From the NCBI GenBank assembly GCA_016937775.1, contig JAFGVX010000050.1, positions 898 through 64,897 of the forward strand: a stretch of DNA of 64,000 bases, read 5' to 3'. The stretch is from Campylobacterales bacterium (lineage in GTDB: Bacteria; Campylobacterota; Campylobacteria; Campylobacterales; Sulfurovaceae). The position numbers and the translations under genes are program-made. The stretch's first letter is position 1. The number at the start of each line of letters is the position of its first letter. Below are positions 548 through 50,094 of the stretch, one piece after another. The notes beneath the pieces were generated by a model. That model ran no database searches, had not been told where the DNA came from, and saw only the letters and a list, made by a program, of their open reading frames with translations.

Positions 548-648
548 GGCATTGTCACGGAAACTGTAGGAGTAATCCCTTGTGGTTGCCCATTTCAATA
601 AATAAATTACATGGTTTTTTTAGGTACCCACAAGGGGCACCCCTACAC
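548..648. repeat. Inverted pair of a GC-rich module (core CCCTTGTGG at 578-586 / CCACAAGGG at 628-636) between convergent genes
   Basis: The reverse complement of 548-593 (atgggcaaccacaagggattactcctaca...) aligns with 621-648 (taggtacccacaaggggcacccctaca). The two arms flank an AT-rich loop of about 30 nt. Confidence 0.55.
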
Positions 649-680
649 ATAAAATAGAATTGAAATTCTATAGTTGCCAC

Positions 681-1859
681 TTATCGCAATGATAAACTAT
701 CCTTCTCCACAAATCTTTTGATTCTGCCAATCCCTTCTCGGATCGTATCGATATCTGTTGCAAACGAAAATCTAAAATATCCTTCGCTACCAAATCCAAC
801 TCCCGGAACTACTGCAACGCCAGTCTCTTTTAAAAGTTGCTTGCAGAACTCTATAGAATCATTAGAAACCTCTTTGATATTGACAAAGAGATAAAATGCT
901 CCTTTTGGTGCAAGCACACTTAGTCCATCTATCTCGTTGAAAAGTTTTACAGCCTCACTCGCTCTTGTTTCAAAAGCTTTGCGCATTGATTCTATCTCAT
1001 CATCAACTTCACCCCGAAGTGCTATGATAGCCGCCTTTTGCGTAATAGAGTTGATGTTGGATGTGCTTTGGCTTTGTAGCTTATTCATAGCAGAGATAAG
1101 CTCTTTTTTTGGTGTTGCTAGGTAACCAAATCTCCAACCTGTCATGGCTACTGATTTGCTTAGACCATTGATTGTAATCGTTCTTTGAAACATATCTTCA
1201 CTAATGCTAGCAGTTGATGTGAAGCCTTCTTCGTAGATGAGTTTTTCATACATCTCATCACTTGCTACAAGGATATCAGTACCTTCTAAAACTCGAGCTA
1301 TCTCTATGAGTTCATCTCTAGTGTAGATAGAGCCTGTCGGGTTTGAAGGGGAAGTAAGTACCACCATTTTTGTTTTTGGAGTGATTGCTGCTTGAAGCTC
1401 TTTCGCACTCATTTTAAATCTATTTTTTTCATTAGTTTCAATAATGACAGGTTTTCCACCGCTATAGATAACAATCTCAGGGTAAGTTACCCAGTAAGGA
1501 GCGGGGATGATTACTTCATCTCCTTCATCAATCACTGCTTGAAAAAGATTGAAGAGCGATTGCTTTGCTCCATTGCTTACGATAATCTCATTAGGTGCAT
1601 ATTTAAGGTTGTTTTCTTTTTCGAGTTTATAGCTTATTGCCTCGAGAAGTTCCGGAATGCCCGGAACAGCTGTGTATTTTGTAAAACCTTCGTCAATTGC
1701 TTTAATTGCTGCATCTTTAATTTTTCTTGGTGTGTCAAAATCCGGTTCGCCGGCAGAGAAGCTTATGACATCCTTGCCTTCAGCTTTCATCTCTTTTGCC
1801 AAAGTGCTTATGGCGATAGTGAGTGATGGTGAAAGTGCCTGTATTCTGCGAGATAACAT
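681..1859 (-). CDS. Class I/II PLP-dependent aminotransferase, aspartate aminotransferase-like
   Basis: 392 aa. N-terminal SFSAGEPDFDTP, PLP-lysine region SKSVAMTGWRFGY. Confidence 0.85.
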   Translation of the reverse strand: MLSRRIQALSPSLTIAISTLAKEMKAEGKDVISFSAGEPDFDTPRKIKDAAIKAIDEGFTKYTAVPGIPELLEAISYKLEKENNLKYAPNEIIVSNGAKQSLFNLFQAVIDEGDEVIIPAPYWVTYPEIVIYSGGKPVIIETNEKNRFKMSAKELQAAITPKTKMVVLTSPSNPTGSIYTRDELIEIARVLEGTDILVASDEMYEKLIYEEGFTSTASISEDMFQRTITINGLSKSVAMTGWRFGYLATPKKELISAMNKLQSQSTSNINSITQKAAIIALRGEVDDEIESMRKAFETRASEAVKLFNEIDGLSVLAPKGAFYLFVNIKEVSNDSIEFCKQLLKETGVAVVPGVGFGSEGYFRFSFATDIDTIREGIGRIKRFVEKDSLSLR

Positions 1860-1933
1860 TCATTGTACCTTTGTTAAAATATTATCGAATTATACTATGG
1901 TTTCATATTTTTTTCGATTAAAAAATCCCTCTT

Positions 1934-2638
1934 TTAGTCTTTTAGTGAATTGATAAAGAGTTCATAGATTTCATCTAATTGTGCATCATCATCCTTTAAG
2001 TGTGAAGCATCTTTTGTTTTGATAGCCGCTTCGATGATGGCGAGTCTTTTAAACATATATTCAAATATCTCTTTGTTGATATCGGGTATCTTGTTGTGAG
2101 AAAATTTGTTTTGATCAAATCCTCTAGCGATGATACGCGCAGGCACACCGATAGCAGTGCAGTTATCGGGTACGTTTTTCACCACAACTGAGTTTGCTCC
2201 AATCTTTGCATTTTCGCCGACGATTATATTGCCGAGTATTTTTGCTCCGGCACCCAATATTGCACCGCTTTTAATAGTAGGATGTCTTTTGCCTTTCTCT
2301 AGGCTCACACCCCCTAAAGTTACTTGTTGATAGATAAGTACATCATCTTCAACTTCGGCAGTTTCACCTATGACGATACCGACTCCATGGTCAATAAAAA
2401 CCCGTCTACCTATTGTTGCAGCAGGATGAATATCGATAATCGTCAAAAATTGCCCTAATCCCGAGATAAGTCTTGGAAGATAGGGGATGTTTTTTTTATG
2501 GAGTGAATGTGCAATTCTATAGAATAAAAGTGCCCAAAGACCGGGATAGTTGAAAAAAAGTTCAAGACGTGACTTTAATGCAGGGTCATTCTCTTTAACA
2601 TTTCTAAAATCTTCTCTAATAAGAGAAAAAAGATTCAT
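1934..2638 (-). CDS. cysE: Serine O-acetyltransferase
   Basis: 234 aa. SATase N-terminal region followed by hexapeptide repeats (DIHPAATIGRRVFIDHGVGIVIGETAEV). Confidence 0.85.
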   Translation of the reverse strand: MNLFSLIREDFRNVKENDPALKSRLELFFNYPGLWALLFYRIAHSLHKKNIPYLPRLISGLGQFLTIIDIHPAATIGRRVFIDHGVGIVIGETAEVEDDVLIYQQVTLGGVSLEKGKRHPTIKSGAILGAGAKILGNIIVGENAKIGANSVVVKNVPDNCTAIGVPARIIARGFDQNKFSHNKIPDINKEIFEYMFKRLAIIEAAIKTKDASHLKDDDAQLDEIYELFINSLKD

Positions 2639-2647
2639 CTATTCTCC

Positions 2648-4525
2648 TTATGGCGTATAGTTTTGATCTAACGCTTGTATAGTCTTAAGATAGCTATTTT
2701 CGCTTAAGTAGAGATAAAGTTTGCCTAAAATCTCTCTCTTTTCATCATTTGATAAAAGCTTTGAATCCTCTATCTTCTGTTTGAGCGATTTGTCCATCTC
2801 ACTAGTATCATAATCAAGATCATCAAGCACATCCATAAGATTTTGCGCTTCTATAAGATTTTCTATATAGTAGTGACCTTTTGCGTCAAACTTGATAACC
2901 GCTTCGGTAGGATGCGTAAAAAGATTGTGTTTCATCCCTAAAACCTCTTGATAAGCACCACTTAAAAAGAAGCCAAGAAAATATTCCTCTTCATCTACAT
3001 CAATATCATGTAAAAAGAGCGGAGATTTAGGCTCAAAGTTTATCTCTCCGTCGCTATCGCAAGTGATATCCCAAATACTCGCAGGATTTGTCGGTTTTGT
3101 ATCAAGTTTACTGAGTGGAACAATAGGAAAATTTTGTTTCAATCCCCACCAATCCGGGAGTGATTGAAAAACAGAAAAATTGACAAGGTATTTTTCTTGA
3201 ATTCTATCTTCAATCCTTTTGAGTTCACTTGTGTCTTCATCTTTTAAGAGTGCAATTGCCCTTTTTATGAGCAAGTTGACAAGTATCTCCGTATTTGATC
3301 TATCTTCAAGATCGATATACCCTAGGTCAAAGAGTGTCAACAAACTCTCCATATGATCAAGCGCATCATGCAGATATTCACGCGCATTTGATTTTCTCAT
3401 TGCACTATAGATATCGTAAAGTTCTTGGATGAGCGGAGGATTTTGTTCTTTGAGTCGTAAACTCTTCTCGTGATACTCTTGAGAGAAGAGTTCAAGCACC
3501 GGAGCGACAAGTACCCCATGACTTGCAGCGATATAGCGTCCTGATTCCGTAAAAATATCGGGAGCGGGAACATTTTTACTTTTGGATATCTCTTGCATGA
3601 GGTAAATGACGTCATTAGCAAATTCTTTAAGTGAATAGTTTCTATCTTGAAGATTTTGATGCTGAGAGTATTCGACTGCTAAACCGCCACCAATATTGAT
3701 CGCTTTGAGTGATTCTACACCTCTTTTTTTAAGTTCAGCATAGATATTTCCTGATTCTCTCAACGCTTTTTTGAGAGCAGCAATCTCTCCCATTTGTGAG
3801 CCTATATGAAAGTGGATCATCCAAAGATGCTCTAAGAGATTATGTTTTTTAAGCATCTCGTATGCCTCAAGTAGTTCCGTTGATGTGAGTCCAAACTTTG
3901 AGCTAAAACCACCGCTTTTTGCCCAAATTCCGGTTCCTGAGCTATGGAGTCTTATGCGTACACCGATTTTTGGAACTATCGGTTTTTTGACTTTTTTATT
4001 AAACTCTTCATTAACTTGTATAATAGTTTCGAGTTCACCGATACCCTCTATGGTTATGGTGATATTGTGCCCCATTTTTGCTGCTATAAAGCAAAGTGCT
4101 ATCATCTCTTTGTCTTTAAATCCGTTTACGGTAATGGGTGAACCTATCTTTGTTTTCGAGATTGCTATGATAAGTTCAGCCTTACTTCCCGCTTCAAGAC
4201 CGTAGGTGTATTCGCTTGATACATCGACAAGTTCATTGACAAAGTTTGGAAATTGATTGACCTTTAAGGGGAAAACAGCATAAAAATTACCGCTATACTT
4301 AAACTCTTTTTTTGCACTTTCAAATGTTGCAAAAAGTGTGTCTATCTGTTTTTTGATAAGGTGTGGAAATCTCAAAAGTATCGGACCCATATACCCTTTT
4401 TGCCGTACACTATTAGTGATCTCAAGAACAGAAGGTTTCATCCCGTAATTGATATTTATGGTATCGTTTTTGATTATGAAGTTGTCATCACCCCATATAT
4501 CAAGACCAAAGCGTTTCATCTGCAA
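2648..4525 (-). CDS. speA: Biosynthetic arginine decarboxylase
   Basis: 625 aa. Length and N-terminal region are typical of SpeA (ILLRFPHLIKKQIDTL, PLKVNQ). Confidence 0.85.
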   Translation of the reverse strand: MQMKRFGLDIWGDDNFIIKNDTININYGMKPSVLEITNSVRQKGYMGPILLRFPHLIKKQIDTLFATFESAKKEFKYSGNFYAVFPLKVNQFPNFVNELVDVSSEYTYGLEAGSKAELIIAISKTKIGSPITVNGFKDKEMIALCFIAAKMGHNITITIEGIGELETIIQVNEEFNKKVKKPIVPKIGVRIRLHSSGTGIWAKSGGFSSKFGLTSTELLEAYEMLKKHNLLEHLWMIHFHIGSQMGEIAALKKALRESGNIYAELKKRGVESLKAINIGGGLAVEYSQHQNLQDRNYSLKEFANDVIYLMQEISKSKNVPAPDIFTESGRYIAASHGVLVAPVLELFSQEYHEKSLRLKEQNPPLIQELYDIYSAMRKSNAREYLHDALDHMESLLTLFDLGYIDLEDRSNTEILVNLLIKRAIALLKDEDTSELKRIEDRIQEKYLVNFSVFQSLPDWWGLKQNFPIVPLSKLDTKPTNPASIWDITCDSDGEINFEPKSPLFLHDIDVDEEEYFLGFFLSGAYQEVLGMKHNLFTHPTEAVIKFDAKGHYYIENLIEAQNLMDVLDDLDYDTSEMDKSLKQKIEDSKLLSNDEKREILGKLYLYLSENSYLKTIQALDQNYTP

Positions 4526-4585
4526 TCCTCGATTAAAAAATAAATAGTATTATAACTAAAAATGGGTCGCAATTTATGCAAAAAC

Positions 4586-5797: not shown

Positions 5798-5798
5798 T

Positions 5799-6374
5799 CT
5801 AACTCCTTATAAAATTGACGACTTCTTTTTGTATCTCCTCAATGCTTTTTGAAGCATTGATATAGAGTCGCTCAATTCCTAATTTCATAATGATATCTTT
5901 CATATTTTGTTGCACTTCTAAAAGATATTTAAGCCCTCTTTTTTCTATCTCATCTAGCCCTTTTTGTGAGAGTCTGCGATCAAGTGTTATGATATCCATC
6001 TCAAAGAGGATAACCTTGTCGGGCATTTTGTTTTCAAGTGCAAAACGGTTCATCTCTAAAAGCTCCATGAAGGAAAATTTATCTCTATTCATCGCATATG
6101 CCATTCCTGAGACAAGTCCTCTATCGGAAAGAATAAGCTTATGAAGATTTGGCTCAATGACTTGTTTGTAATGCTCGGCTCTGTCGGCTAAAAAAAGGAG
6201 TACTTCGGCTCTTTTTGATTTGAGCTCACTTCGTAAAAGTATCTCTCTTGCTTTTTGACCGAAAGCCGTTCCACCAGGCTCTTGAGTCATGATAGCATCC
6301 GGAAATATCTCTTTTAAAAGTTCGATTTGTGTGCTTTTCCCGCAAGTATCTATGCCTTCAAATAGTATATACAT
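5799..6374 (-). CDS. tmk: Thymidylate kinase
   Basis: 191 aa. P-loop FEGIDTCGKST. Confidence 0.85.
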   Translation of the reverse strand: MYILFEGIDTCGKSTQIELLKEIFPDAIMTQEPGGTAFGQKAREILLRSELKSKRAEVLLFLADRAEHYKQVIEPNLHKLILSDRGLVSGMAYAMNRDKFSFMELLEMNRFALENKMPDKVILFEMDIITLDRRLSQKGLDEIEKRGLKYLLEVQQNMKDIIMKLGIERLYINASKSIEEIQKEVVNFIRS

Positions 6375-6847
6375 TATAACCCTTTCTTTAACATCGGTAG
6401 AATTTCTTTCGGCACAAGATGATCTACTTTGCCATCATATCTTAAAATGGAGCGCACAACAGATGAACTGATAAATGCATTTTGAAGACTTGGCATTAAG
6501 TAAACAGTCTCAATTTCTTTTCTTAGTGAAGCATTCGCATATCCCATTTGTAGCTCATATTCAAAATCACTAACAGCTCTCAAGCCTCTTATGATGATAT
6601 CTGCATTGAGCTTATCACACAGATCAACAAGGAGGGTGTCAAATCCGACGACAGAAACATTGTCATATTTTTTTGTTGCAAGGTGGATCATATTGATACG
6701 TTGTTGCGCATCAAACATCGGCTTTTTTTCTGAATTGTGAGCAACAGCTATAACAACTTCATCAAAGATGCTACATGCACGCTTGATGATATCAAGGTGT
6801 CCGTTGGTTACCGGATCAAAAGTTCCCGGATATATAGCTTTTTTCAT
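6374..6847 (-). CDS. coaD: Phosphopantetheine adenylyltransferase
   Basis: 157 aa. YPGTFDPVTNGHLDII. Its stop overlaps the tmk start. Confidence 0.9.
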   Translation of the reverse strand: MKKAIYPGTFDPVTNGHLDIIKRACSIFDEVVIAVAHNSEKKPMFDAQQRINMIHLATKKYDNVSVVGFDTLLVDLCDKLNADIIIRGLRAVSDFEYELQMGYANASLRKEIETVYLMPSLQNAFISSSVVRSILRYDGKVDHLVPKEILPMLKKGL

Positions 6848-7944: not shown

Positions 7945-10140
7945 TTGAAGATCACGATAATCATCACAGCCATTCTTTTCGTATATGCAGCGTTTTCAAC
8001 GATTTTTGTCGATACAAAACTTGTCGGTAATATTGGGAAAATCGTAGGAGAGACTAATTTAGAATTTTTTGGATATTTTGCTTATATTAATCTTCTTATT
8101 CTTTTTTATCCTCTTTATAGACTCTATGTTGCGGGCGAGTATTACAAGAAGATTGATTATATTGTGGGATGGATACTCTTTTTCATTGCGTGTGTCATAT
8201 TGAGCGGTCTTATTTTACCCGCAGAAGGTATAGGGTATGTTGCAAGAGAGATCATTTTTTTTCTCTATCCTTTTATAGGTAAAGCAGGGCTATGGTTGTT
8301 GTGGTTTATGATTTTTGCACTTTCTTTGGTGCTTATAGCAGATGATGATTTTAGTTGGAGAAGTTTTGCAAAAGAGAAGGCGACGACATCACTTAGTTTC
8401 TCTATAGATAAGCTAGGAGCACCTTTTTTAGTCATCGGTAAACTTTTTAAAAGTATTTTCAAAAATCCTTTTGCTTCCGCTCCGCTTGATAATGAGTTTT
8501 TTATTGATGAAGAGCGTGAAGTGAAAAAAATTCCGTCTCAAACAAAGAGTACTTCAAGAAGGAGTGTAATAGAACCGCTTGAGGAGATAAGGAGCGAGAT
8601 TAAAAATAGTGATCTTAGCGATATAGTGCTTGACAAAAAAAGATTGAGTGCAAAAAAGAGTCACGTTGAGATCATTGATGAATTAGAGGAGAACTCAAAA
8701 CTGCTTGCGTCCATAGACAAAGGAGCGGTAACGGCACCTAAAAATTTTAGATTGCCCAAGATAGATTTTTTGCAAAAAGCACCGAGGATGATTAAAAAGG
8801 TCAATGAAGACGAGATCGATCGAAAAATAGGTGATTTACTCGATAAACTTAAAAGATTCAATATAGAGGGTGATGTGGTGCGTACCTATAGCGGTCCGCT
8901 TGTAACAACTTTTGAGTTTAAACCGGCTCCTCATGTGAAGATATCGAAGATACTTGGTCTTCAAGATGATTTAGCAATGGCACTCAGCGCCGAGACGATT
9001 CGCATTCAAGCACCGATTCCCGGCAGGGATGTTGTGGGTATTGAGATACCAAATGACAACATAGATACTATTTATCTTCGTGAGGTACTTGAGAGTGATA
9101 TTTTTCAAAATGCAAAATCATCTCTTACGGTCGCTCTTGGAAAAGATATCGTCGGAAGACCCTTTTTGACAGATATTAAAAAATTACCGCATTTACTTAT
9201 CGCGGGAACAACGGGAAGTGGAAAATCAGTAGGCATTAATGCGATGATTCTTTCTCTTTTATATAGAAATGATCCTGATCATCTAAAGCTTATGATGATT
9301 GATCCAAAGATGTTGGAGTTTTCAGTTTATAATGATATCCCTCACCTCATAACACCCGTGATTACTTCTCCAAAAAAAGCGATTACTGCATTGGCAAATA
9401 TGGTTACAGAGATGGAGCGTAGATATCAGCTTATGGCAGAAAATCGTACAAAAAACATCGAAACCTACAATGAGAAAGCGAAGCGAACGGGTGAGGCGGA
9501 ACTTCCATATATCGTAGTCATCATAGATGAACTTGCCGATCTTATGATGACGAGTGGTAAAGAGGTTGAGTATTCCATAGCGAGACTTGCGCAGATGGCA
9601 AGAGCAAGCGGTATTCATCTCATAGTAGCAACACAGCGTCCAAGTGTTGATGTGGTTACGGGGCTTATCAAAGCAAATCTCCCTTCGCGATTGAGCTATA
9701 GGGTGGGGCAAAGGATAGATTCAAAAGTAATTTTAGACACTATGGGTGCAGAAAGTCTTCTCGGGCGTGGTGATGCACTCTTTACCCCTCCGGGAGCTGT
9801 GGGGCTTGTAAGACTTCATGCGCCGTGGAGCAGTGAAGAGGAGATAGAGAAGATTGTCGAGTATCTTAAACTCCAAAGAGAGCCTGAATATGATGAGAGT
9901 TATTTAAATAGCTCGGGCGGTAACCAAAATGGCGGTTTAGGTCAAAATTCGGAAGGCGAGCTTGATCCGCTCTATAATGAGGCGAGAGAGATCATATTGA
10001 CTGACAAAAAAACATCGATATCCTATCTTCAAAGAAAGTTGCAGATAGGATATAATCGTTCGGCAAATATTATTGAACAACTGCAGGCAAACGGTGTACT
10101 GAGTGCACCTAATGTTAAAGGGAATAGAGAGATCTTGTAA
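7945..10140 (+). CDS. ftsK: DNA translocase FtsK
   Basis: 731 aa. N-terminal membrane helices, linker, motor domain with Walker A GTTGSGKSV, C-terminal winged-helix gamma domain. Confidence 0.9.
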   Translation: MKITIIITAILFVYAAFSTIFVDTKLVGNIGKIVGETNLEFFGYFAYINLLILFYPLYRLYVAGEYYKKIDYIVGWILFFIACVILSGLILPAEGIGYVAREIIFFLYPFIGKAGLWLLWFMIFALSLVLIADDDFSWRSFAKEKATTSLSFSIDKLGAPFLVIGKLFKSIFKNPFASAPLDNEFFIDEEREVKKIPSQTKSTSRRSVIEPLEEIRSEIKNSDLSDIVLDKKRLSAKKSHVEIIDELEENSKLLASIDKGAVTAPKNFRLPKIDFLQKAPRMIKKVNEDEIDRKIGDLLDKLKRFNIEGDVVRTYSGPLVTTFEFKPAPHVKISKILGLQDDLAMALSAETIRIQAPIPGRDVVGIEIPNDNIDTIYLREVLESDIFQNAKSSLTVALGKDIVGRPFLTDIKKLPHLLIAGTTGSGKSVGINAMILSLLYRNDPDHLKLMMIDPKMLEFSVYNDIPHLITPVITSPKKAITALANMVTEMERRYQLMAENRTKNIETYNEKAKRTGEAELPYIVVIIDELADLMMTSGKEVEYSIARLAQMARASGIHLIVATQRPSVDVVTGLIKANLPSRLSYRVGQRIDSKVILDTMGAESLLGRGDALFTPPGAVGLVRLHAPWSSEEEIEKIVEYLKLQREPEYDESYLNSSGGNQNGGLGQNSEGELDPLYNEAREIILTDKKTSISYLQRKLQIGYNRSANIIEQLQANGVLSAPNVKGNREIL

Positions 10141-10289
10141 AAGAGTGATTTTATCTCTTTAGGAAAGAAAAAAGTAACAAATAGTTACAAAATAGCTTCA
10201 TCATCATTTTTGGTATTTGTCGTATATACTGTTTTTAGCTCTTTATTGATACTATTCGTAATAAATACAGTGATATAAGGGAGATAATC

Positions 10290-12854
10290 ATGGCTTTAGT
10301 CGAAGATTATAAAAAACATACCGAACAAAGAGCGCAATTGGGTGTTCCGCCGTTACCGCTTAACGCATCTCAGACGGCTGAGCTTGTGGAACTATTAAAG
10401 CAAGAGAATATCGCTGAAGAAGATTATCTTTTGAGTCTTTTTGCAAATAGAGTGCCTGCGGGTGTGGATGATGCAGCATATGTAAAAGCCGCATTTTTAA
10501 ATGATATCGTTCAAGGTAAAACGAAGTGTAGTGCTATTACAAAATTAGATGCTGTAAAACTTTTGGGCAATATGCATGGCGGTTTCAATGTAACTCCGCT
10601 TGTGGAGGCGCTTAAGATTGATGCAGTTGCAAACGAGGCGGCTGAACAATTAAAAAATACACTTTTGGTATATAATTCATTTAACGATGTAAAAGCATTG
10701 ATGGATGCAGGAAATGCAAAAGCAAAAGAGGTTATTGAATCTTGGGCAAATGCTGAATGGTTTACAAATCGACCTGAACTTCCGCAAGAGATGACACTGA
10801 CAGTATATAAAATTCCGGGTGAAACAAATACGGATGATCTCTCCCCTGCGAGTGAGGCATTCACAAGAGCAGATATTCCATTGCACGCAAACTCTATGTT
10901 GGTTTCTAGAATGGAAAATCCATTGGAAACCATGGCATCATTGAAAGAAAAGGGCTACCCATTAGCGTATGTCGGTGATGTTGTAGGTACGGGAAGTTCA
11001 AGAAAATCGGGTATTAATTCCGTGCAATGGCATATGGGTGAAGATATTCCCGGTATTCCAAATAAAAGAACAGGTGGTGTTGTGATCGGCTCAATCATTG
11101 CTCCTATTTTCTTTAATACGGCAGAAGACTCAGGATGTTTACCGCTTGAAGCTAATGTTGATAATCTTGAAACAGGTGATGTCATTACTGTAAAACCTTA
11201 TGAAGGAGTTATTGAAAAAAATGCAGAAGTGGTATCAACATTTAAATTAAACCCAAATACAATCACAGATGAGATGCGAGCAGGAGGAAGGATTCCTCTT
11301 ATTATCGGAAAAGGATTGACAGCTAAAGCAAGAGAAGTTTTAGGTATGGATCCATCTGATATGTTCTTGACTCCCAATCAGCCTGAAGATGACGGATCGG
11401 GTTATACACTCGCGCAAAAAATGGTTGGTGAGGCATGTGGTGTGAAGGGGGTTAAACCGGGTGTTTACTGTGAGCCAATTGCAACAACTGTTGGAAGCCA
11501 AGATACAACGGGACCGATGACAAGAGATGAGATCAAAGAGCTTGCAGCCCTTTCGTTCGGTGCTGATTTTGTGCTTCAGTCATTTTGCCATACAGCAGCT
11601 TATCCAAAGCCTGCAGATATTGAACTACAACATACGCTTCCTGATTTTTGGACAAGCAGAAAAGGCTTTATATTAAGACCCGGTGATGGTGTAATTCACT
11701 CTTGGCTCAATAGAATGTGTCTGCCAGATACTGTAGGAACGGGCGGAGATAGCCATACGAGATTTCCTATAGGTATTTCTTTTCCTGCGGGAAGCGGACT
11801 TGTTGCTTTTGCCGCTGTTACGGGTATGATGCCACTTACTATGCCTGAGTCTGTATTGGTGAAATTTAAAGGAGAAATGCAGCCAGGTATTACGCTTAGA
11901 GACCTTGTTAATGCTATTCCGTATCAGGCTATCAAGGATGGTCTATTGACAGTTGAGAAAAAAGGTAAGAAAAATATTTTTGCGGGAAGAGTTTTAGAGA
12001 TTGAAGGACTCGAAGATCTTAAATGCGAGCAAGCGTTTGAACTTAGTGACGCTAGCGCAGAGAGAAGTGCAGCGGCTTGTACGGTAAAGTTAAACAAAGA
12101 GCCAATTATCGAATATCTCGAATCAAATATCGTTCTTATTGATGAGCTAATAGCTCAAGGGTATGAAGATAAGGCTACGCTTGCTAGAAGAAGAGATAAG
12201 ATGAAAGCTTGGCTTGCAAACCCTGAGTTGCTCGAAGCTGACGCTAATGCGCAGTATGCAGCAACTATCGAGATTGATTTAAATGAGATCAGAGAGCCGA
12301 TCTTGGCATGTCCTAATGATCCTGATGATGTGAAGACACTAAGTGAAATCCATGAAGCGGGACTCCAAACAAAAATCGATGAAGTATTTGTCGGTTCATG
12401 TATGACAAATATCGGACTCTTTAGAGCTTTAGGTGAGGTTTTGAGAGGTGAAGGTGCCGTTCCTACAAAATTGTGGGTTTGTCCTCCGACGAAAATGGAT
12501 GAAAAAACGCTTATTGAGGAAGGATATTATGCTGTGTTTGGAACAGCGGGGGCTAGAACAGAGATACCCGGATGCTCTTTATGTATGGGTAATCAGGCCT
12601 CGGTGGCACAAAATGCATATGTATTTAGTACATCTACGAGAAACTTTGACAATAGACTCGGAAAAGGCTCTCAGGTGTATCTCGGAAGTGCAGAGCTCGC
12701 AGCTGTGACAGCTCTTAAGGGTCGCATTCCGACAGCAGCAGAGTATATGGAGATAGTTCCAAATAAAATCAAGCCTGAGATGAGCGATAATGTTTATAGA
12801 TATTTAAATTTCAACAAAGTCTCAAAAGAGGCACTAGAGGCAATGGTGGGCTAA
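10290..12854 (+). CDS. acnB: Aconitate hydratase B (bifunctional aconitase 2 / 2-methylisocitrate dehydratase)
   Basis: 854 aa. AcnB-type N-terminal HEAT-like domain followed by the aconitase core with cluster cysteines. Confidence 0.9.
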
Positions 12855-31498: not shown

Positions 31499-31524
31499 TA
31501 TTGGTTATTGGTTATTGGTTATGG
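31499..31524. repeat. Tandem heptamer TATTGGT, about 3.6 copies
   Basis: tattggt tattggt tattggt tatgg directly after the stop codon and abutting the next repeat module. Confidence 0.8.
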
Positions 31525-31591
31525 ATTGCCACGAAGCTAAAGCTTCTCGCAATGACTGCGACTGTCATCGCGAGCGTAGCGCGGCGATCCA
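31523..31591. repeat. Family-B palindromic composite element (about 70 nt)
   Basis: ggattgccacgaagctaaagcttctcgcaatgac + tgcgact + gtcatcgcgagcgtagcgcggcgatcc. The ends are near-perfect inverted repeats and the centre is ATGAC/GTCAT. Confidence 0.8.
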
Positions 31592-34019: not shown

Positions 34020-34509
34020 TAAGCGTATCATTAATGCACTCTTGATAGTTGATATCGGTGTTGTGGTTTTTTGCTATCTTTTTGGCACGCGCACATGGCT
34101 TATAAATTCTCAGATAGGTTTTGTGAGTTCCCTCTTGGTTGTTTTGGCTTCCATGCATAGCTATAGCAAGATGGTACAGAGGCAAGTTGAAAATGCAAAA
34201 CCACTTGACAATGAAGATGATGTGCTAGAGAAAATTGAAGATCCACATGAGGTTTTCAGAGAAGATGCAGAGTCTCAAGAAGAGGATTCAAGGAAGGAGC
34301 CAAAAATCAGTGTGTTAGAATCATTGAAAAACTCAAGAGCTTCGATATCCTTTTATAGGATAGGTGCATATGGAGTATTTGCACTTGGTTTCTTGTATCT
34401 CTCAAGTAATAAAATTTTTCATATTTCAAGTTATTTTGTCGGTATATCTTTACCTATAGCTGTTATTGTTACTTTACTATTTTTGAAAGCAAAAAAAGGA
34501 GATGTATGA
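33997..34509 (+). CDS. Hypothetical membrane protein
   Basis: 170 aa. 2+2 TM helices with an acidic central loop. The start is ambiguous (MTMMTM) and overlaps the upstream poly-Asp codons. Confidence 0.45.
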   Translation: MTMMTMIDKRIINALLIVDIGVVVFCYLFGTRTWLINSQIGFVSSLLVVLASMHSYSKMVQRQVENAKPLDNEDDVLEKIEDPHEVFREDAESQEEDSRKEPKISVLESLKNSRASISFYRIGAYGVFALGFLYLSSNKIFHISSYFVGISLPIAVIVTLLFLKAKKGDV

Positions 34510-34529
34510 TATTGAGACAAATGCATTTT

Positions 34530-34599
34530 GGATTGCCACGACTTTTTCAAAGTCTCGCAATGACAGTCATTGGGATGGGCAAAGCGAAGAAGCAATCCA
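34530..34599. repeat. Family-B palindromic composite element (about 70 nt)
   Basis: ggattgccacgactttttcaaagtctcgcaatgac a gtcattgggatgggcaaagcgaagaagcaatcca. Ends ggattgc/gcaatcc are perfect inverted repeats. Confidence 0.8.
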
Positions 34600-35267
34600 T
34601 TTACCTTAAAAGTATATTTTTATTTTTTGCAATTTTTAGTTTTGGATATGCAAAAGATTTTGTAATCATCGATAAACCTATAGATTTTAGTCCAAATAGA
34701 ATATCTATGACAAAAGATTATATCAAGGTTCATTATGGTTTGGATGTTAAAGATATAACTATAAATCCAAAGATTATAGTGCTTCATTGGACGGCAGTTC
34801 CGACACTTGAGGGTTCATTTGATAGGTTGAGACCGGAACTTTTGCTTACCGATCGCAAAGATATAGCAGCTGCGGGGGCTGTGAATGTTTCATCTCATTT
34901 TTTAGTTGATAGAGACGGGACTATATATAGATTGATGCCCGAGAATTATATGGCAAGGCACACTATAGGGCTTAATTATTATGCGATAGGCATAGAAAAT
35001 GTCGGAGGCAAGGGTGATAAGAGTGAAGATTTGACCCAAGCTCAAGTAAAAGCAAATGCTTATTTAGTGAGATATCTGAAGACAAAGTATCCTGACATTG
35101 AGCTTTTGATGGGACATCATGAATATGCTAAAATGAAGAAAACAAAGTATTGGCTAGAGAAGGATGATAATTATTTTACGCAAAAAAATGATCCGGGCGA
35201 TATCTTTATGAATGCTGTTAGAAGCAAAGTTGTTGACATTGGGCTCAAAAATCCAAGCGAGTTTTAA
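34575..35267 (+). CDS. Secreted N-acetylmuramoyl-L-alanine amidase (Amidase_2/PGRP fold)
   Basis: IVLHWTAVPT...SSHFLVDRDGTIY...IGIENVG. I place the start at MGKAKK (34575), upstream of the signal peptide. The 23 codons from 34506 are encoded by the repeat element. Confidence 0.7.
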   Translation: MGKAKKQSIYLKSIFLFFAIFSFGYAKDFVIIDKPIDFSPNRISMTKDYIKVHYGLDVKDITINPKIIVLHWTAVPTLEGSFDRLRPELLLTDRKDIAAAGAVNVSSHFLVDRDGTIYRLMPENYMARHTIGLNYYAIGIENVGGKGDKSEDLTQAQVKANAYLVRYLKTKYPDIELLMGHHEYAKMKKTKYWLEKDDNYFTQKNDPGDIFMNAVRSKVVDIGLKNPSEF

Positions 35268-36763
35268 TGCAAAGCGGATTTGGTATAGTTGATTGGGGTG
35301 TTTTGATAGCCTATTTTTTGATTATTGCACTTAGTTCCTTCGTTTTTAGCCGTATCAAGATCGCAACTTCTAGAGACTATTTTGTCGCTTCTAATAGCGT
35401 GCCGATGTTTGCTGCAGCCATCTCTATACTTGCCACAACTCAATCGGCTGCCACATTTTTAGGTGGCCCTGAATACTCCTATCTTCATGATCTTACCTTT
35501 GTTGGCTTTTATGTTTCGGCATTTCTAGCTGTTATTTTTGTTGCTTGGGTGCTTATTCCAAGATTCTATGCACTCAAAGCAGTTACTGTTTATGAGCTTT
35601 TGGAAAATCGATATGGCGCGAGTGCTAAAAGAGCAGCAGGTGTGATGTTTTTGGTAGGTCGTCTCTTTGCTAGCGGTGCTAGACTCTACATCGGCGCACT
35701 TGCGATATCGATGATACTTTTTTTGGATATCGAGGCTTTCCATGTTGCTATATCGGTAGTAGTTTTGATGTTTGGTGCGCTTTTATATGTTTATTTCGGC
35801 GGTGTCAAATCGGTCATCTTCTCTGATATCATCCAAGCATTTACCTATATCGGGGCTGCGATTGCCGTGATATGGTATCTCTATATTTCGCTCGATAGTG
35901 ATATGTCAACGATAATAAACACTCTTTATACATCCGGTAAGTTGAAGCTCATAAGCTTTGAGGGTGATTTTAGTATTTGGGCGTTGCTGAGCGGATGGTT
36001 TTTGCTCAATGTTGCAGCGTATGGGCTTGATCAAGATATGACACAAAGAGCACTCTCGTGTAAAGATACAAAAAGTGCACAAAATTCGCTTCTCTTCTCC
36101 GTTTTGCTCACACTTCCTGTTGCATTTCTTTTTTTGATCATCGGACTGCTTTTATACCTCTTTTATGCAAAAGTAGGCATTGCTTCAAAAGAGTTTGACG
36201 GAGAGAGTGTGACGATATTTATGTACTATATCCTCCATGAGATGCCTGAAGGTTTGCGAGGGCTTGTGACTGTGGGCGCCATAGCCGCAGCACTCTCATC
36301 TTCTAACTCTGTGTTGGGTGCCATGGCTTCTGTGGCGATAGAAGACATCTATAAGCCTTGGAAGTTGGCACGAGGCAGTATCGGCGAAGCACACTTTGTA
36401 AGAGCAGGGAGGATGAGTGTTGTGGTATTTTCTATTTTGCTCTCACTTATGGCGATGCTGAGTTATTATTGGCAGCACCATAGTGGCACATCTCTGCTTA
36501 GTTTTGCTCTTGGCGTGATGGCATTTGCTTATGCGGGGCTCCTAGGAGTCTATGGTGCAGCGATCTTTACAACTAGAGGGAGTGCGAAAAGTGTATTATT
36601 TGCTCTTGGCATGGGGTTTTTGACAGTACTTCTTTTGCAGCCTTATATCTTTGGTGCTAATATAGGGTTTTCTTGGCAGATAGTTTTAGGAACCGCTGCT
36701 TCATTTGGAGTGATGATGCTGAGTAAAAATCGCAGAGACATACAAAAGGACATCTATGAGTGA
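35267..36763 (+). CDS. Sodium:solute symporter (SSS) family transporter
   Basis: 498 aa, about 13 TM helices, SSS-type N-terminal region. TAATG overlap with the amidase gene. Confidence 0.75.
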   Translation: MQSGFGIVDWGVLIAYFLIIALSSFVFSRIKIATSRDYFVASNSVPMFAAAISILATTQSAATFLGGPEYSYLHDLTFVGFYVSAFLAVIFVAWVLIPRFYALKAVTVYELLENRYGASAKRAAGVMFLVGRLFASGARLYIGALAISMILFLDIEAFHVAISVVVLMFGALLYVYFGGVKSVIFSDIIQAFTYIGAAIAVIWYLYISLDSDMSTIINTLYTSGKLKLISFEGDFSIWALLSGWFLLNVAAYGLDQDMTQRALSCKDTKSAQNSLLFSVLLTLPVAFLFLIIGLLLYLFYAKVGIASKEFDGESVTIFMYYILHEMPEGLRGLVTVGAIAAALSSSNSVLGAMASVAIEDIYKPWKLARGSIGEAHFVRAGRMSVVVFSILLSLMAMLSYYWQHHSGTSLLSFALGVMAFAYAGLLGVYGAAIFTTRGSAKSVLFALGMGFLTVLLLQPYIFGANIGFSWQIVLGTAASFGVMMLSKNRRDIQKDIYE

Positions 36764-37940
36764 ACTTTATATCGGTGTGATGAGCGGAACCTCTCTTGAT
36801 GGCATCGATGTTGCCCTTTGTGAGATAGACGCCCATAGCTGTAAACTTGTAGCATCACAGAGCTCTCCACTCCCACCCAAGCTTAAAGCCATGATACTCC
36901 ACGCTATAAACTCCAAGATAACCCTAGAGGAGTTCACAAAGCTTGATCATCTTTTGGGTCTTGCGTTTGCTAAGAGTATTGATGCTCTCCTAAAGAGCAC
37001 AAGTTATGAAAAAGGTGATATCAAAGCCATAGGTTTACACGGACAGACTCTTTGGCATACTCCAAAAAGTGCCACTCCAAGTTCGCTGCAACTAGGAGAT
37101 GCCAATGTGGTTGCTGTGCAGAGCAAGATAGATGTCGTGAGTGATTTTAGGCGTAAAGATGTAGCACTTGGAGGTGAGGGCGCCCCCCTTGCTCCTGCGT
37201 TTCATGCGTTTTTATTTCAAGACATCATCGATGAGACTGCTGTAGTCAATATCGGCGGTATGTCTAATATCACTGTCAAGGATAACAGTAAACTCATAGG
37301 TTATGATGTAGGGTGTGGCAATGTACTTCTTGATATGTGGATAGGTATACAGCAAGATAAAAGCTATGATGAGAGCGGAGCGTGGGCAAAGAGCGGCAAG
37401 ATGATTCAATCTCTTTTGGATACCATGCTTAGCGATGTCTATTTTGCAAAAAGCTATCCAAAGAGTACGGGCAGGGAGTATTTCAATCAAGAGTGGCTTG
37501 AAGATAAATTATTCTGTCATTCTGAACTCGTTTTGGAATCAAAAAATAGGGAGATCCTGAAACGAGTTCAGGATGACAACAGAGAATCAAAAAAAGAGGA
37601 GATCCTGAAGCGAGTTCAGGATGACAAGCGGTTGCAAGCAGATATCCAAAGAACACTGTTAGAGCTCACAGCATTAAGCATTGCCAAAGAGGTCAAGAGG
37701 TTTGATAAAAAGAGAGTTATGCTTTGTGGGGGTGGGGCTAAAAATAGCTTTTTAGTAGAACGCCTAAGAGTAAACCTCCCTCAAGTAAAAGTGGAAATTG
37801 CCCAAAATAGTGATATATTAGAAGCGATGGCATTTGCTTGGTTAGCTTCTATGCGTGTGTATGGTAAAAGTGTAGAGTTAAGCAGTGTAACAGGCGCAAA
37901 AAAAGATGCCATACTTGGAGCGATTTATGCAGGAGATTAA
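36756..37940 (+). CDS. anmK: Anhydro-N-acetylmuramic acid kinase, carrying an in-frame repeat insertion
   Basis: 394 aa. GVMSGTSLDGIDV, DFRRKDVALGGEGAPL, KSTGREYFN and SVTGA motifs. 8-nt overlap with the transporter gene. Confidence 0.85.
   Translation: MSELYIGVMSGTSLDGIDVALCEIDAHSCKLVASQSSPLPPKLKAMILHAINSKITLEEFTKLDHLLGLAFAKSIDALLKSTSYEKGDIKAIGLHGQTLWHTPKSATPSSLQLGDANVVAVQSKIDVVSDFRRKDVALGGEGAPLAPAFHAFLFQDIIDETAVVNIGGMSNITVKDNSKLIGYDVGCGNVLLDMWIGIQQDKSYDESGAWAKSGKMIQSLLDTMLSDVYFAKSYPKSTGREYFNQEWLEDKLFCHSELVLESKNREILKRVQDDNRESKKEEILKRVQDDKRLQADIQRTLLELTALSIAKEVKRFDKKRVMLCGGGAKNSFLVERLRVNLPQVKVEIAQNSDILEAMAFAWLASMRVYGKSVELSSVTGAKKDAILGAIYAGD
37516..37627. repeat. Three family-A hairpin modules (one forward, two reverse) inside the anmK reading frame
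   Basis: gtcattctgaactcgttttggaatc (37516-37540), gatcctgaaacgagttcaggatgac (37553-37577), gatcctgaagcgagttcaggatgac (37601-37625). Confidence 0.85.
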
Positions 37941-38866: not shown

Positions 38867-38928
38867 GTCATTATGAGGTTTTGTTGGAATCTAAAAATGA
38901 AGAGATCCTGAAACGAGTTCAGGATGAC
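38867..38928. repeat. Family-A inverted doublet (REPIN-like), 62 nt
   Basis: gtcattatgaggttttgttggaatc + 12 nt + gatcctgaaacgagttcaggatgac. About 85 percent identical to 37516-37577. Confidence 0.8.
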
Positions 38929-38953: not shown

Positions 38954-39008
38954 GTCATTCTGAATTTATTTGTCCTCAGGCTTCGCCCTGCGAGATTTCA
39001 TCAGAATC
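38954..39008. repeat. Family-A module interrupted by a 30-nt GC-rich insert
   Basis: gtcattctgaatttattt[gtcctcaggcttcgccctgcgagatttcat]cagaatc. Confidence 0.65.
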
Positions 39009-40891: not shown

Positions 40892-40920
40892 TTTTTTGAT
40901 TATAGCACTTTTGTTTAAAG

Positions 40921-46009: not shown

Positions 46010-46018
46010 TGTAAAGTT

Positions 46019-48034: not shown

Positions 48035-48128
48035 AATGATTTCCTAATTTTTGATGGAGTATAGCAAAAGATGCTTAAGTGAGTCGTGAGATTCGTCACT
48101 CCTATGGAGGCAGGAATTCATAATATTT

Positions 48129-48193
48129 GTCATGCTGAACTTGTTTCAGCATCTCTTCTTATATTTTAGACCCTGAAACAAGTTCAGGGTGAC
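48129..48193. repeat. Family-A inverted doublet (REPIN-like), 65 nt
   Basis: gtcatgctgaacttgtttcagcatc + 15 nt + gaccctgaaacaagttcagggtgac. Confidence 0.85.
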
Positions 48194-48201
48194 GGTGTGT
48201 T

Positions 48202-48234
48202 GTCATTGCGAGAAGCTTTAGCTTCGTGGCAATC
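48202..48234. repeat. Family-B module, reverse orientation
   Basis: gtcattgcgagaagctttagcttcgtggcaatc. Its reverse complement is 33/33 identical to 31524-31556. Confidence 0.9.
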
Positions 48235-48257
48235 TATATTCTATAAAGTAAACAAAT

Positions 48258-48413
48258 CCGCTCATGGTGAGCTTGTCGAACCATTATCTTGCTCTTGTTC
48301 CCATGCTTTGCGTGGGAATACATACTCCCAATATTTTATATGTGTTTCCACGAAAATCGTAGGAACGAGGGAATGTTTTTCTTTTTCTTCTTTCCACTTT
48401 TTAGAAAAGTGGA
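48258..48413. repeat. String of further short hairpin modules
   Basis: ccgctcatggtgagcttgtcgaaccat, ttcccatgctttgcgtgggaa, ttccacgaaaatcgtaggaa, tccactttttagaaaagtgga. Confidence 0.55.
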
Positions 48414-48421
48414 GTAAAAGC

Positions 48422-48567
48422 GTCATGCTCACAAAGTCGCGGTCGGCATATCCATGCTTGCTATCTGTACCGCCGCAGATATGCCTGCTTTACAAGGATG
48501 CTCGCATGACAGTTATTTGATAGATTGCACCAAAGGTGCAAAAGCGACAGAAAGAGCGATGTGGATT
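48422..48567. repeat. GTCATGC...GCATGAC-bounded palindromic element plus a B-like tail
   Basis: gtcatgctcac...ggcatatc...gatatgcc...ctcgcatgac (48422-48510), then ttgcacc-aaa-ggtgcaa and agcgatgtggatt. Confidence 0.5.
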
Positions 48568-48614
48568 ATTTCCTGCGGGTGTTTTGTCGGAAAGCAACGA
48601 TGATTTGGTAAGCA

Positions 48615-49031
48615 CTACTCTTTATGAAAGAAATTTGTTTTTGGCTTCACATCAAAAAATAAAAACAGTACAACAAAAAACATTATGAGTGCAAAAATAT
48701 TAATTTGAAATAGCGAAAAAAGGCTATTATCCATATGCGCATTTCTAAAGCCAATTGTTAATATTATTCCAGAAGAGAAATTAAAACATAAATCTTTAGT
48801 ACAAAAGATAATTATTTGCAATGCATAATAAAGCATTCCAAGAAGAAAGCCGGTTTTTTCTTTTAATATCATGTAGATACTGGCAATTATACCACTTAAT
48901 AAGAATAATATATATGGAGAGTCTAAAATAGATAAGCGTTGTATTTCTTTTAAAAGGAGCATATTAAAAATACCAAATAATGCAGAAATAATTGTTATGA
49001 TAGAAACAATCATTATTTTTTTAGAATGCAT
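48615..49031 (-). CDS. Hypothetical 4-TM membrane protein
   Basis: 138 aa, hydrophobic. Its start lies 2 nt from the metF stop. Confidence 0.5.
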   Translation of the reverse strand: MHSKKIMIVSIITIISALFGIFNMLLLKEIQRLSILDSPYILFLLSGIIASIYMILKEKTGFLLGMLYYALQIIIFCTKDLCFNFSSGIILTIGFRNAHMDNSLFSLFQINIFALIMFFVVLFLFFDVKPKTNFFHKE

Positions 49032-49032
49032 G

Positions 49033-49953
49033 CTAACCGATCAACTCACTACAAAGATCAAATCGATTATGCGTCATCAGATGCACCTTAGGATGCAGTT
49101 GCATCACACTATCAAATATCTCTTTTGAAAGAGCAAAGCCAACATCATGCTCTTTTTCGGCACCGTCTTTAGCGGCTGTATTCATCGCTTTGATGATATG
49201 AGCCGGTACGCTTATGCCTGGCACATGCGCATCGATGAAGTTTGCAGTCTTGGCTGCAACTACAGGGAATTGTCCAAGGATGAGTTGCGCCTCTTTAGAA
49301 GTCTCTCGTATGCTCTCACGCTTGGCATTTTCAAATATTTCAAGCAGTGCCTTAGCATTATCTATATCATAAACGGGCTGTGTGATGATCGCTCTTGCCC
49401 CATAGTTGAGCTTTTTGAGCATCCGCTTTTCAAGTGTCTTCATATCTTTGGCATGTGCATTGCTCACAGCAAACGGATAGATAGGTTTAAGTGGTGCTTT
49501 GAGTGGTTGTTTGCTGTAGTCCGTGCCGCTATTGAGATGGTGGATGATGCTAAGAAGCAGTGTGGAGTCTCGCTCTAATACACCCTTAACCTCGGGTTGA
49601 TCAGAGTATTTTGCAGGATCACCGGTAAGTGCCAGGATGCAGCGGATATCAAAATCATTGGCACCAAGAAGGGTGGATTGAAGTGAGAGCTTATTTTTAT
49701 CGCGCATGCTCATAGTAGCAATAACTGGTTTGTTGAACTCTTGTTGCACTTTTATAGCAGAGAGTATGGAGTCCATTTTTAGTTTTGCGAGAGGATTGTC
49801 CGTAGTCGTAAATCCTGTAATTTTTTTATCCAATCCTAGAGTTCGTATATCGTTTATTATATTTTCGATGGAGCCACCATGCGGAGGTGTAATCTCTATA
49901 GTTATAAAGTGGTCATTGGAGCATAAAGTAGAGCAAAATTGATCAAATAGCAT
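49033..49953 (-). CDS. metF: Methylenetetrahydrofolate reductase
   Basis: 306 aa. MTHFR-type TIM barrel (ITIEITPP, TTTDNPLA, LALTGD). Confidence 0.75.
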   Translation of the reverse strand: MLFDQFCSTLCSNDHFITIEITPPHGGSIENIINDIRTLGLDKKITGFTTTDNPLAKLKMDSILSAIKVQQEFNKPVIATMSMRDKNKLSLQSTLLGANDFDIRCILALTGDPAKYSDQPEVKGVLERDSTLLLSIIHHLNSGTDYSKQPLKAPLKPIYPFAVSNAHAKDMKTLEKRMLKKLNYGARAIITQPVYDIDNAKALLEIFENAKRESIRETSKEAQLILGQFPVVAAKTANFIDAHVPGISVPAHIIKAMNTAAKDGAEKEHDVGFALSKEIFDSVMQLHPKVHLMTHNRFDLCSELIG

Positions 49954-50035
49954 AGCAACTCTTGTTTTTTGGGTTAGTTTTGTTACAATTTTACCAAATT
50001 ATACTTTGCAATAAGATAGCGCGATCAGGCTTGCC

Positions 50036-50094
50036 GTCACCCTGAATTTATTTCAGGGTCTAGTTTGTAGATTCTGAAACAAGTTCAGAATGAC
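50036..50094. repeat. Family-A inverted doublet (REPIN-like), 59 nt
   Basis: gtcaccctgaatttatttcagggtc + 9 nt + gattctgaaacaagttcagaatgac. Confidence 0.85.

Follow-up and report, generated by a model that had tools for sequence, protein, structure and literature searches.

Short hairpin repeats are scattered over the 64,000-nt stretch of contig JAFGVX010000050.1, from a Campylobacterales bacterium of the family Sulfurovaceae, that was analysed here as a whole and is called the window in the following. Ten of them are copies of a 25-nt module with the stem core CTGAA/TTCAG, and four pairs of these copies are inverted doublets with their tags outward. The modules are CGTC-tagged palindromes of the family CGTC-2, i.e. 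of the same class as the dRS3/NTS repeats of Neisseria and the Ssn-related motifs (SRM). We consider it probable that the doublets are hairpins of the Ssn type, namely the ends of ssn cassettes from which the gene is missing. The module variants and the cassette geometry match those found around ssn genes, and the window doublets are therefore best read in this way. This reading draws on results obtained here, namely the anatomy of the modules, the covariation of their stems, their presence or absence at the same sites of related genomes and the geometry of cassettes with the same variants, one of them on a contig assigned to Sulfurovaceae; the binding and cleavage of single-stranded DNA (ssDNA) by Ssn were taken from the literature.

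Anatomy and covariation of the modules

The CTGAA-type module is composed of a YGTC tag, an 8-bp stem containing the core, a 5-nt loop and a C. Every copy listed in the original prediction was found at the position given for it, and the architecture that it had described (forward module, spacer, reverse module) was confirmed at four loci, with spacers of 12 nt (37516-37577), 12 nt (38867-38928), 15 nt (48129-48193) and 9 nt (50036-50094). The four doublets span 59-65 nt, end in GTCA…TGAC and are all heterodimers. Its start at position 548 did not hold, since none of these families is found there; the region has instead a GTAG-tagged doublet (566-646) and a remnant of a second family (673-692), both described below.

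The pattern CTGAA-N4-10-TTCAG matched 7 times in the window against 0.98 matches expected, and 0 of 100 dinucleotide-preserving shuffles reached 7. The seven core matches are all flanked by GTCAY (5′) and RTC (3′), hence by both the tag and the tail C, neither of which was demanded by the search pattern. With a strict structural definition (GTC, at least 5 contiguous Watson-Crick pairs, then C) we obtained 13 window matches, compared with 3.5 in Markov-1 simulations, and 11 of the 13 were modules already listed in the original prediction. There are about 17 GTC-tagged modules within the 64 kb. Rfam, at gathering thresholds, reported only two tRNAs in the window.

For the analysis of covariation we aligned 14 copies, 9 from the window and 5 from related loci. 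Among the window copies the tag is TGTC in five and CGTC in four, with G, T and C invariant; in all 14 copies the invariant positions are GTC, the first A of the stem, the last T of the stem and the C after it. The bases that follow this C are TC or TA in the window copies and CA in loci L199 and L216, the published consensus of the tail being CCA. In this alignment 98.2% of the cells are paired, both sides change in 5 of the 8 stem pairs, and the covariation score was matched by 0 of 500 shuffles. As a control, the 3′ partner was slid by one to three columns and pairing fell to 13-60%. The first stem pair is A:T in 14 of 14 copies, and the second is T:A in 12 and C:G in 2. We also scanned viral contigs leaving two variable stem positions free as to pairing, which gave 180 independent copies in distinct contexts. 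The inner variable pair was Watson-Crick in 166 of the 180 (C:G 94, G:C 59, T:A 12, A:T 1); 75 were expected, and none of 2000 shuffles gave more than 96. The outer variable pair was T:A in 131 and C:G in 42. The hairpin itself is therefore under constraint, as had been argued originally from the complementary stem changes.

Identical 25-mers such as GTCATGCTGAACTTGTTTCAGCATC were present in IMG/VR contigs of 31-71% G+C (loci L002-L121), which implies either horizontal spread or a very strong constraint by a conserved partner. As regards orientation, 37 pairs in the viral loci were head-to-head, 11 tail-to-tail and 7 head-to-tail.

Prokaryotic repetitive extragenic palindromes (REPs) are split into a GTAG-tagged and a CGTC-tagged superfamily (Di Nocera, De Gregorio & Rocco 2013, BMC Genomics 14:522; PMC3733652). 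The repeats of the latter have the tag CGTC, often TGTC, stems of 8-9 bp which nearly always begin with complementary A-T, loops of 4-5 nt and a short tail, and they mostly form head-to-head dimers, heterodimers being common in CGTC-2 (PMC3733652). The class includes dRS3 of Neisseria and two Rickettsia palindromic elements (RPE), RPE-4 as CGTC-4 and RPE-6 as CGTC-1, and CGTC-2 was reported in Sulfurovum sp. NBC37-1, Sphingomonadales and Kosmotoga (PMC3733652). Supplement file 4 of that study gives a CGTC-2 copy of Sulfurovum sp. NBC37-1 inside SUN_0512, translated RHSELVSGS (PMC3733652). This peptide is the translation of CGTCATTCTGAACTTGTTTCAGGATC, that is, of the CTGAA-type module of the window; hence the family is formally described in Campylobacterota, intragenic copies included, contrary to the original prediction, according to which no such description was known. 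The window modules share with CGTC-2 the CGTC/TGTC tag, the 8-bp stem starting with A-T and T-A, the 5-nt loop, the short unpaired tail, the head-to-head dimers (often heterodimers) and the intragenic in-frame copies. They differ from it in their source, another Sulfurovaceae genome, and in their tail, which is CTC/CTA and not CCA; moreover, the 2013 study found no associated protein. The RPE, reportedly described by Ogata and colleagues in 2000, are likewise palindromic repeats inserted in frame into protein genes, but they are longer (about 100-150 nt) and described only in Rickettsia.

Cassettes of ssn and CTGAA-type modules

SsnA of Neisseria is a 94-aa single-domain GIY-YIG protein (cd10448), and its target NTS (CGTCATTCCCGCGMAVGCGGGAATCYRG), a longer form of dRS3, is bound and cut only as ssDNA and on one strand only (Chenal et al. 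2025, Nat Commun 16:2388; PMC11893778). No base matters more for binding than the C that follows the palindrome, while the three bases before the palindrome weigh most for cleavage, the cut being a few nt upstream of the tag; NTS loops may be altered or extended, and motifs of this kind, the SRM, flank ssn homologues in various phyla (PMC11893778). The system studied here resembles NTS/dRS3-SsnA in the layout YGTC-AT-stem-loop-stem-AT-C and in the module-ssn-module cassette. The window modules keep the tail C and the 3-nt tag, i.e. the key positions of SsnA for binding and cutting, and the tolerance of extended loops compares with the second family and with the interrupted copy at 38954. In contrast, the NTS stem core is CCCGC/GCGGG with a 4-nt loop, and that of the window modules CTGAA/TTCAG with a 5-nt loop.

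We considered as Ssn-like the genes assigned by Pfam PF01541 and by homology to Ssn-like proteins. A profile of low-G+C Ssn representatives, run on one genome per species, gave 80 named Ssn loci in a wide range of phyla, including Planctomycetota, Patescibacteria, Omnitrophota, Bacteroidota and Cyanobacteria. In 75 of the 80 a YGTC-hairpin-C module lies no more than 250 nt from ssn, the usual layout, in which the tags point outward, being a (+) module about 25-90 nt upstream of the start and a (−) module about 2-30 nt beyond the stop.

We searched metagenome contigs for NPxWxDL codons with a CTGAA module at a distance of 5-35 nt. At least 120 loci match this pattern, and 113 of the 120 listed contain a full match to the Ssn hidden Markov model. 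The loci listed hold 121 Ssn gene hits, and in 50 of these another CTGAA-type module, not part of the search pattern, lies upstream at a distance of up to 120 nt. The variants among the matches listed are those of the window (GTCATGC…GCATC, GTCACCC…GGGTC, GTCATCC…CTCGT…GGATC and GTCATTC…GAATC), and cluster names place some of these loci in Mesonia, Psychroflexus, Pedobacter, Treponemataceae, TM6 and Roizmanbacteria. A pattern of a module followed by YVYI codons, run on viral contigs, gave nothing but false matches.

Three loci, L199, L216 and L217, came from genome, metagenome-assembled genome and read assemblies. The first, from Ca. Marinamargulisbacteria, has a complete cassette (Table 1), and about 75 nt beyond it the same two modules recur as a doublet that lacks the gene (3387-3446, 10-nt spacer), preceded by a copy of the left flank of the cassette. 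In the other two, ssn has a CTGAA module, TGTCATTCTGAACTTGATTCAGAATC, on each side. L216 also has a second ssn paralog (2101-2470) between recA and recX, with flanks of the CCCGC type and 8 kb away from the CTGAA-flanked one at 10001-10309, i.e. two putative nuclease-hairpin pairs in one genome. A Muribaculaceae locus (L201) has the second family, GTCATTGCGAG…GGCAATC, on both sides of ssn. At L076, where ssn is flanked by CCCGC-type modules, a CTGAA copy lies 1.3 kb off; the Ssn of this locus, whose nearest named homologues are from Sphingopyxis/Sphingomonas, returned as a search seed only Sphingomonadales relatives, and it is therefore uninformative on Campylobacterota. No Campylobacterota names appeared in the search for homologues of the L199 Ssn, and blastp of flanking ORFs (open reading frames) against the window proteins identified no Sulfurovaceae contig.

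A further contig, L218, has a tetranucleotide correlation of 0.93 with the window, the highest after those of the true relatives. A DUF455 protein next to its ssn falls in a 90%-identity cluster with six named members, five labelled Sulfurovaceae bacterium and one Campylobacterales bacterium. Because of the tetranucleotide similarity and these cluster names we assign L218 to Sulfurovaceae. The reverse module of its cassette (Table 1) is identical to that of the anmK doublet of a related locus (L125) and one base off the window copies at 37553 and 38904, and its ssn is in the same context on 12 contigs from several samples. In the protein two extra residues are inserted (INLNLIE).

At L199 (3286-3310), L216 (10286-10310), L217 (2260-2284) and L218 (6679-6703) the downstream module contains the stop codon of ssn (…GAATGAC or GATCCTGAA), so that the Ssn proteins as called finish with residues derived from the module, such as DSESSSE. 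Spurious N- or C-terminal peptides contributed by the flanking modules are also present in many Ssn entries of the databases, e.g. VIPAKAGIQ, SFPRKRESS and CHSGLDPES. The original prediction was right in that similar modules are translated into recurrent junk peptides in several phyla, as can be seen in the AnmK inserts (below), in the terminal extensions of Ssn ORFs and in supplement file 4 of the 2013 study.

Turnover between related genomes and other hairpin elements

The window was compared with the syntenic 21-kb loci of four relatives (L122-L125), the nucleotide identity of the flanks being 79-94%. Occupancy differs among these related Sulfurovaceae genomes at each of the four sites compared (31.5, 34.5, 37.5 and 38.9 kb). 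At 31.5 kb the same pair is present in the window and in L125, a different doublet (GTCATGCGAG…) in L123 and L124, and a remnant in L122. The 90-nt pair at 34.5 kb is in the window only. The 38.9-kb site is empty in L122-L124, where the two genes abut, and is occupied by other GTC-tagged modules in L125, whose anmK doublet is a CCGAA + CTGAA heterodimer, the combination also seen in the L218 cassette. Between related Sulfurovaceae genomes the doublets turn over fast, by gain, loss, duplication and replacement; the comparison of insertion sites among relatives, proposed together with the original prediction, shows in this way that the elements are dynamic.

The 37.5-kb site is inside anmK, where the modules at 37516-37625 sit in frame as a 37-codon insert, CHSELVLESKNREILKRVQDDNRESKKEEILKRVQDD, a point absent from the original prediction. 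In the window protein the insert starts with CHSELVLES. The closest named AnmK homologues are annotated as Sulfurovaceae, Sulfurovum, Campylobacterales, Epsilonproteobacteria or Campylobacterota. An alignment of the homologues (A1) was used to compare the module content at this one site: there is no module in P0126 (76% identical), P0225 and Sulfurovum sp. CS9, one doublet (RHSELVSES-KNK-EILKQVQDD) in P0123-P0125, three modules in the window protein and P0122, and four in P0176, while P0127, P0132 and P0149 have other module types (…CRNDN, PSSSGLTRGS) joined to the EILKQVQDD module. Such repeated filling suggests that the position is a hot spot or, alternatively, that new copies land beside old ones. 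The doublets are tolerated in intergenic DNA and, in frame, inside anmK.

The second family, here family B, is a split-stem module, GTCATTGCGAG…GGCAATC (GGATTGCCACG…CTCGCAATGAC), and has at least five copies in the window. Its compensatory inner stems, noticed in the original prediction, are real: they were seen at three window sites (31524-31556, 34530-34564 and 48202-48234), and the family recurs 41 times in other fetched loci with many different compensatory inner stems. The remnant at 673-692 is a decayed, degenerate copy.

Some modules overlap the ends of neighbouring genes. The ORF of a haloacid dehalogenase (HAD)-type hydrolase (50090-50758) begins at the ATG within the ATGAC end of the module at 50070-50094. 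Within window 34506-34660 the amidase_2 ORF crosses two modules ahead of a signal-peptide-like segment; in relatives this gene starts 30 codons later (MRVFLVF…), and the window module at 34566-34597 contains a possible start, MGKAKK. The modules thus appear to donate coding signals to neighbouring genes.

Positions 48040-48615 are a 580-nt intergenic mosaic similar to bacterial interspersed mosaic elements, with at least 6 hairpin repeats of different kinds: a CTGAA doublet, a family-B copy, GCTCATGGTGAGCTTGTCGAACCAT, a GTTCCCATGC…/GTTTCCACG… pair and the doublet at 48422-48510. The GTAG-tagged inverted doublet at 566-646, GTAGGAGTAATCCCTTGTGGTTGCCC … GGTACCCACAAGGGGCACCCCTAC, has one copy in the window, and its loop is CTTGT, as in CTGAA modules. 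This doublet is of the REP type truly linked to REP-associated tyrosine transposases (RAYTs), and it agrees with the report that GTAG and CGTC repeats occur together in Sulfurovum.

Table 1. Hairpin modules, their host gene in the window and two ssn cassettes (the last two rows are numbered within their own loci)
Feature	Position	Strand	Remark
Family-B module GTCATTGCGAG-AAGCTTTAGCTT-CGTGGCAATC	31524-31556	-	Split stem
GTC-tagged module GTCATCGCGAGCGTAGCGCGGCGATC	31564-31589	+	Forms with 31524-31556 a pair with tags facing inward
Family-B module	34530-34564	-	Different compensatory inner stem, GACTTT/AAAGTC
Decayed GTC-tagged module GTCATTGGGATGGGCAAAGCGAAGAAGCAATC	34566-34597	+	Within the 5′ end of the amidase_2 ORF
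anmK (anhydro-N-acetylmuramic acid kinase)	36756-37940	+	394 aa; host gene of three modules
Decayed forward CTGAA-type module GTCATTCTGAACTCGTTTTGGAATC	37516-37540	+	Left half of the doublet inside anmK
CTGAA-type module GTCATCCTGAACTCGTTTCAGGATC	37553-37577	-	Right half of the anmK doublet
Extra CTGAA-type module GTCATCCTGAACTCGCTTCAGGATC	37601-37625	-	From a 48-nt duplication of spacer and reverse module
Degenerate forward module GTCATTATGAGGTTTTGTTGGAATC	38867-38891	+	Left half of the 38867-38928 doublet
CTGAA-type module	38904-38928	-	Right half; doublet between genes of an aminoglycoside phosphotransferase (APH)-like kinase and a nucleoside triphosphate (NTP)-transferase
Interrupted CTGAA-type module	38954-39008	+	About 30 nt extra in the loop; outer stem ATTCTGA/TCAGAAT retained
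CTGAA-type module GTCATGCTGAACTTGTTTCAGCATC	48129-48153	+	Left doublet half
CTGAA-type module GTCACCCTGAACTTGTTTCAGGGTC	48169-48193	-	Right doublet half
Family-B module	48202-48234	+	91% complementary to the 31524 copy (45-nt arms, repeat I2)
Doublet of a third GTC-tagged type, GTCATGCTCAC… / …GCTCGCATGAC	48422-48510	.	Same element at the 31.5-kb site of L123 and L124
CTGAA-type module GTCACCCTGAATTTATTTCAGGGTC	50036-50060	+	Left doublet half
CTGAA-type module GTCATTCTGAACTTGTTTCAGAATC	50070-50094	-	Right doublet half; ATGAC end includes the ATG of the ORF at 50090
L199 cassette (Ca. Marinamargulisbacteria)	(+) 2963-2987; ssn 3001-3309; (−) 3286-3310		(+) TGTCATCCCAGACTTGATCTGGGATC; (−) TGTCATTCTGAACTTGATTCAGAATC
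L218 cassette	(+) 6313-6337; ssn 6387-6686; (−) 6679-6703		(+) CGTCATCCCGAATTTATTTCGGGATC; ssn 99 aa, PF01541 E = 4.6e-16; (−) GATCCTGAAACAAGTTCAGGATGAC, overlapping the stop

Origin and spread of the doublets

According to the model that we propose, each module would be recognised, as an ssDNA hairpin, by a cognate Ssn, i.e. by a GIY-YIG endonuclease that has one domain and about 95-100 aa. The ssn genes lie in cassettes similar to insertion sequences (IS), with a (+) module, ssn and a (−) module in this order and the tags outward, and the window doublets would be two cassette ends without the gene, i.e. derivatives comparable to miniature inverted-repeat transposable elements (MITEs). A cognate Ssn encoded elsewhere in this genome would act on the window copies, and either Ssn itself or replication or repair at the cut hairpins would spread the doublets. 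Cutting at hairpins exposed in replication, repair or transformation would drive copying, loss and replacement. Mobilisation of the doublets by Ssn is, in this scheme, what we infer.

Several results weigh against this explanation. Neither the 64-kb window nor the 21-kb loci L122-L125 contain an ssn by hmmsearch with the Ssn profile or by Pfam on small ORFs, and a crude GIY-YIG motif scan and phmmer gave none in these sequences or in L001. The SRM pattern HGTCWYN(0-2)YYVSBRHN(0-5)WNVSBRGN(0-2)RNCYNB has 0 matches in the window; it matches NTS and none of the CTGAA, CCGAA and family-B modules, being a search device built from 29 genomes and not a biochemical definition. Neisseria SsnA loses its activity when the stem sequence is changed (PMC11893778), so that the CTGAA type must have a cognate enzyme of its own to be cleaved; the Ssn clade associated with these modules is known here from sequence alone. 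The Ssn-like protein of L218 has a Tyr (EYK) where all sequences of the Ssn alignment A2 have a His (EHK), and because this His is invariant in the family its activity is uncertain. Moreover, L218 is from a different lineage, the AnmK proteins tied to it (P0131 and P0129) being about 58% identical to that of the window. Finally, neither a target-site duplication nor a clean empty-site junction could be made out at the polymorphic sites, the flanks (about 85% identical) being too diverged.

The original prediction had compared the doublets with REPINs, i.e. inverted REP doublets, and had suggested as their partner a RAYT, an IS200/IS605-like transposase of the Y1/HUH type, acting in trans. REPIN-RAYT systems were reportedly described by Bertels & Rainey in 2011 and by Nunvar and colleagues in 2010. 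The analogy with non-autonomous elements of this kind is reasonable. Both systems have inverted doublets of short hairpins with conserved termini, a single-copy gene flanked by the same repeats, hairpin recognition in ssDNA and populations of related sequences in each genome. A GTAG tag marks the REPs linked to RAYTs, and a genuine doublet of this kind is in the window. However, the only GTAG pair is this different element at 566-646, and the tag of the modules is YGTC in all copies. Tyrosine transposase genes are reported in Sulfurovum sp. NBC37-1, but no transposase was linked to CGTC repeats and none of the Sulfurovum Y1 genes is flanked by them (PMC3733652); nor was a Y1 domain found by Pfam among the 20 small window ORFs scanned. 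The flanked gene is instead a GIY-YIG one in 113 of the 120 metagenome loci listed, in 75 of the 80 genome loci and at L199, L216, L217 and L218, and every examined locus with these modules in cassette geometry encodes a single-domain GIY-YIG (Ssn-like) protein. In addition, REPINs are thought to be mostly vertically inherited, whereas the CTGAA 25-mer is common to contigs of 31-71% G+C. We consequently regard mobilisation by a RAYT as very improbable. Even less credit is given to the possibility that the doublets are MITEs of the conventional kind, in which TGTCAT…ATGACA would be the terminal inverted repeats and the DDE transposase would be encoded elsewhere. The TG…CA ends, as in many DDE elements, the short length and the presence/absence variation between strains would agree with this, but no doublet has a visible target-site duplication, single modules and inward-facing pairs are common, each supposed terminal repeat is itself a covarying hairpin, and the full-length partner between such ends is a GIY-YIG protein of 95-100 aa and not a DDE enzyme.

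The hairpins might also be kept mainly for a role in RNA or in the host (3′-end formation, mRNA stabilisation or attenuation), with the link to the nuclease as a secondary one. Several copies are in fact downstream of genes or between convergent genes (31.5, 38.9 and 48.1 kb), four modules score as terminator-like hairpins in a lax scan, and many REPs are argued to be transcribed (PMC3733652). On the other hand, terminator-like sites in the region are at the level of chance (17 against 15 ± 4.5), and no module is followed by an uninterrupted T run longer than 4, the tails being CTCTTC or CTAGTT. Copies of either orientation exist, and some lie in coding sequence or between divergent genes (50036-50094). 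The GTC tag and the tail C, which are invariant and unpaired, orient the DNA strand and would be needless for a simple RNA hairpin, the same 25-mer across contigs of 31-71% G+C fits a conserved protein partner better, and Neisseria SsnA does not bind RNA (PMC11893778). We therefore consider a mainly RNA-level or host role unlikely, although an effect on RNA may exist on the side. Chance, an assembly artefact and a simple terminator role were rejected on the counts given in this text.

Under the preferred reading, that of gene-less ends of ssn cassettes, one could speculate further. The cassettes and the gene-less doublets may form an autonomous/non-autonomous mobile pair driven by a GIY-YIG single-strand nuclease, with a transposition or copying mechanism distinct from those of HUH, DDE and serine/tyrosine recombinases. 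In Sulfurovaceae the activity of the pair would suffice to remodel intergenic regions and to produce repeated in-frame insertions at the anmK hot spot. Each Ssn clade would then co-evolve with its own stem, so that several orthogonal pairs could be present in a genome, as at L216. We put this forward only tentatively and think it rather less probable than its contrary.

Both the repeat class and its nuclease partner are already published, and no new category is defined here. The CTGAA-core and GCGAG split-stem modules are outside the SRM pattern and yet flank Ssn-like genes in many phyla, including on the contig assigned to Sulfurovaceae, and the CGTC-2 catalogue of 2013 is thereby joined to the Ssn family of 2025. 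The doublets match the two ends of an ssn cassette, and the presence of a cassette beside a gene-less doublet in one locus (L199) gives a concrete model of how doublets may originate. The turnover at every compared site and the repeated insertion in anmK make the question of mobilisation by Ssn a testable one. In annotation, the modules also account for junk peptides that recur, for false extensions at the N- and C-termini of proteins and for start or stop codons that neighbouring genes receive from them.

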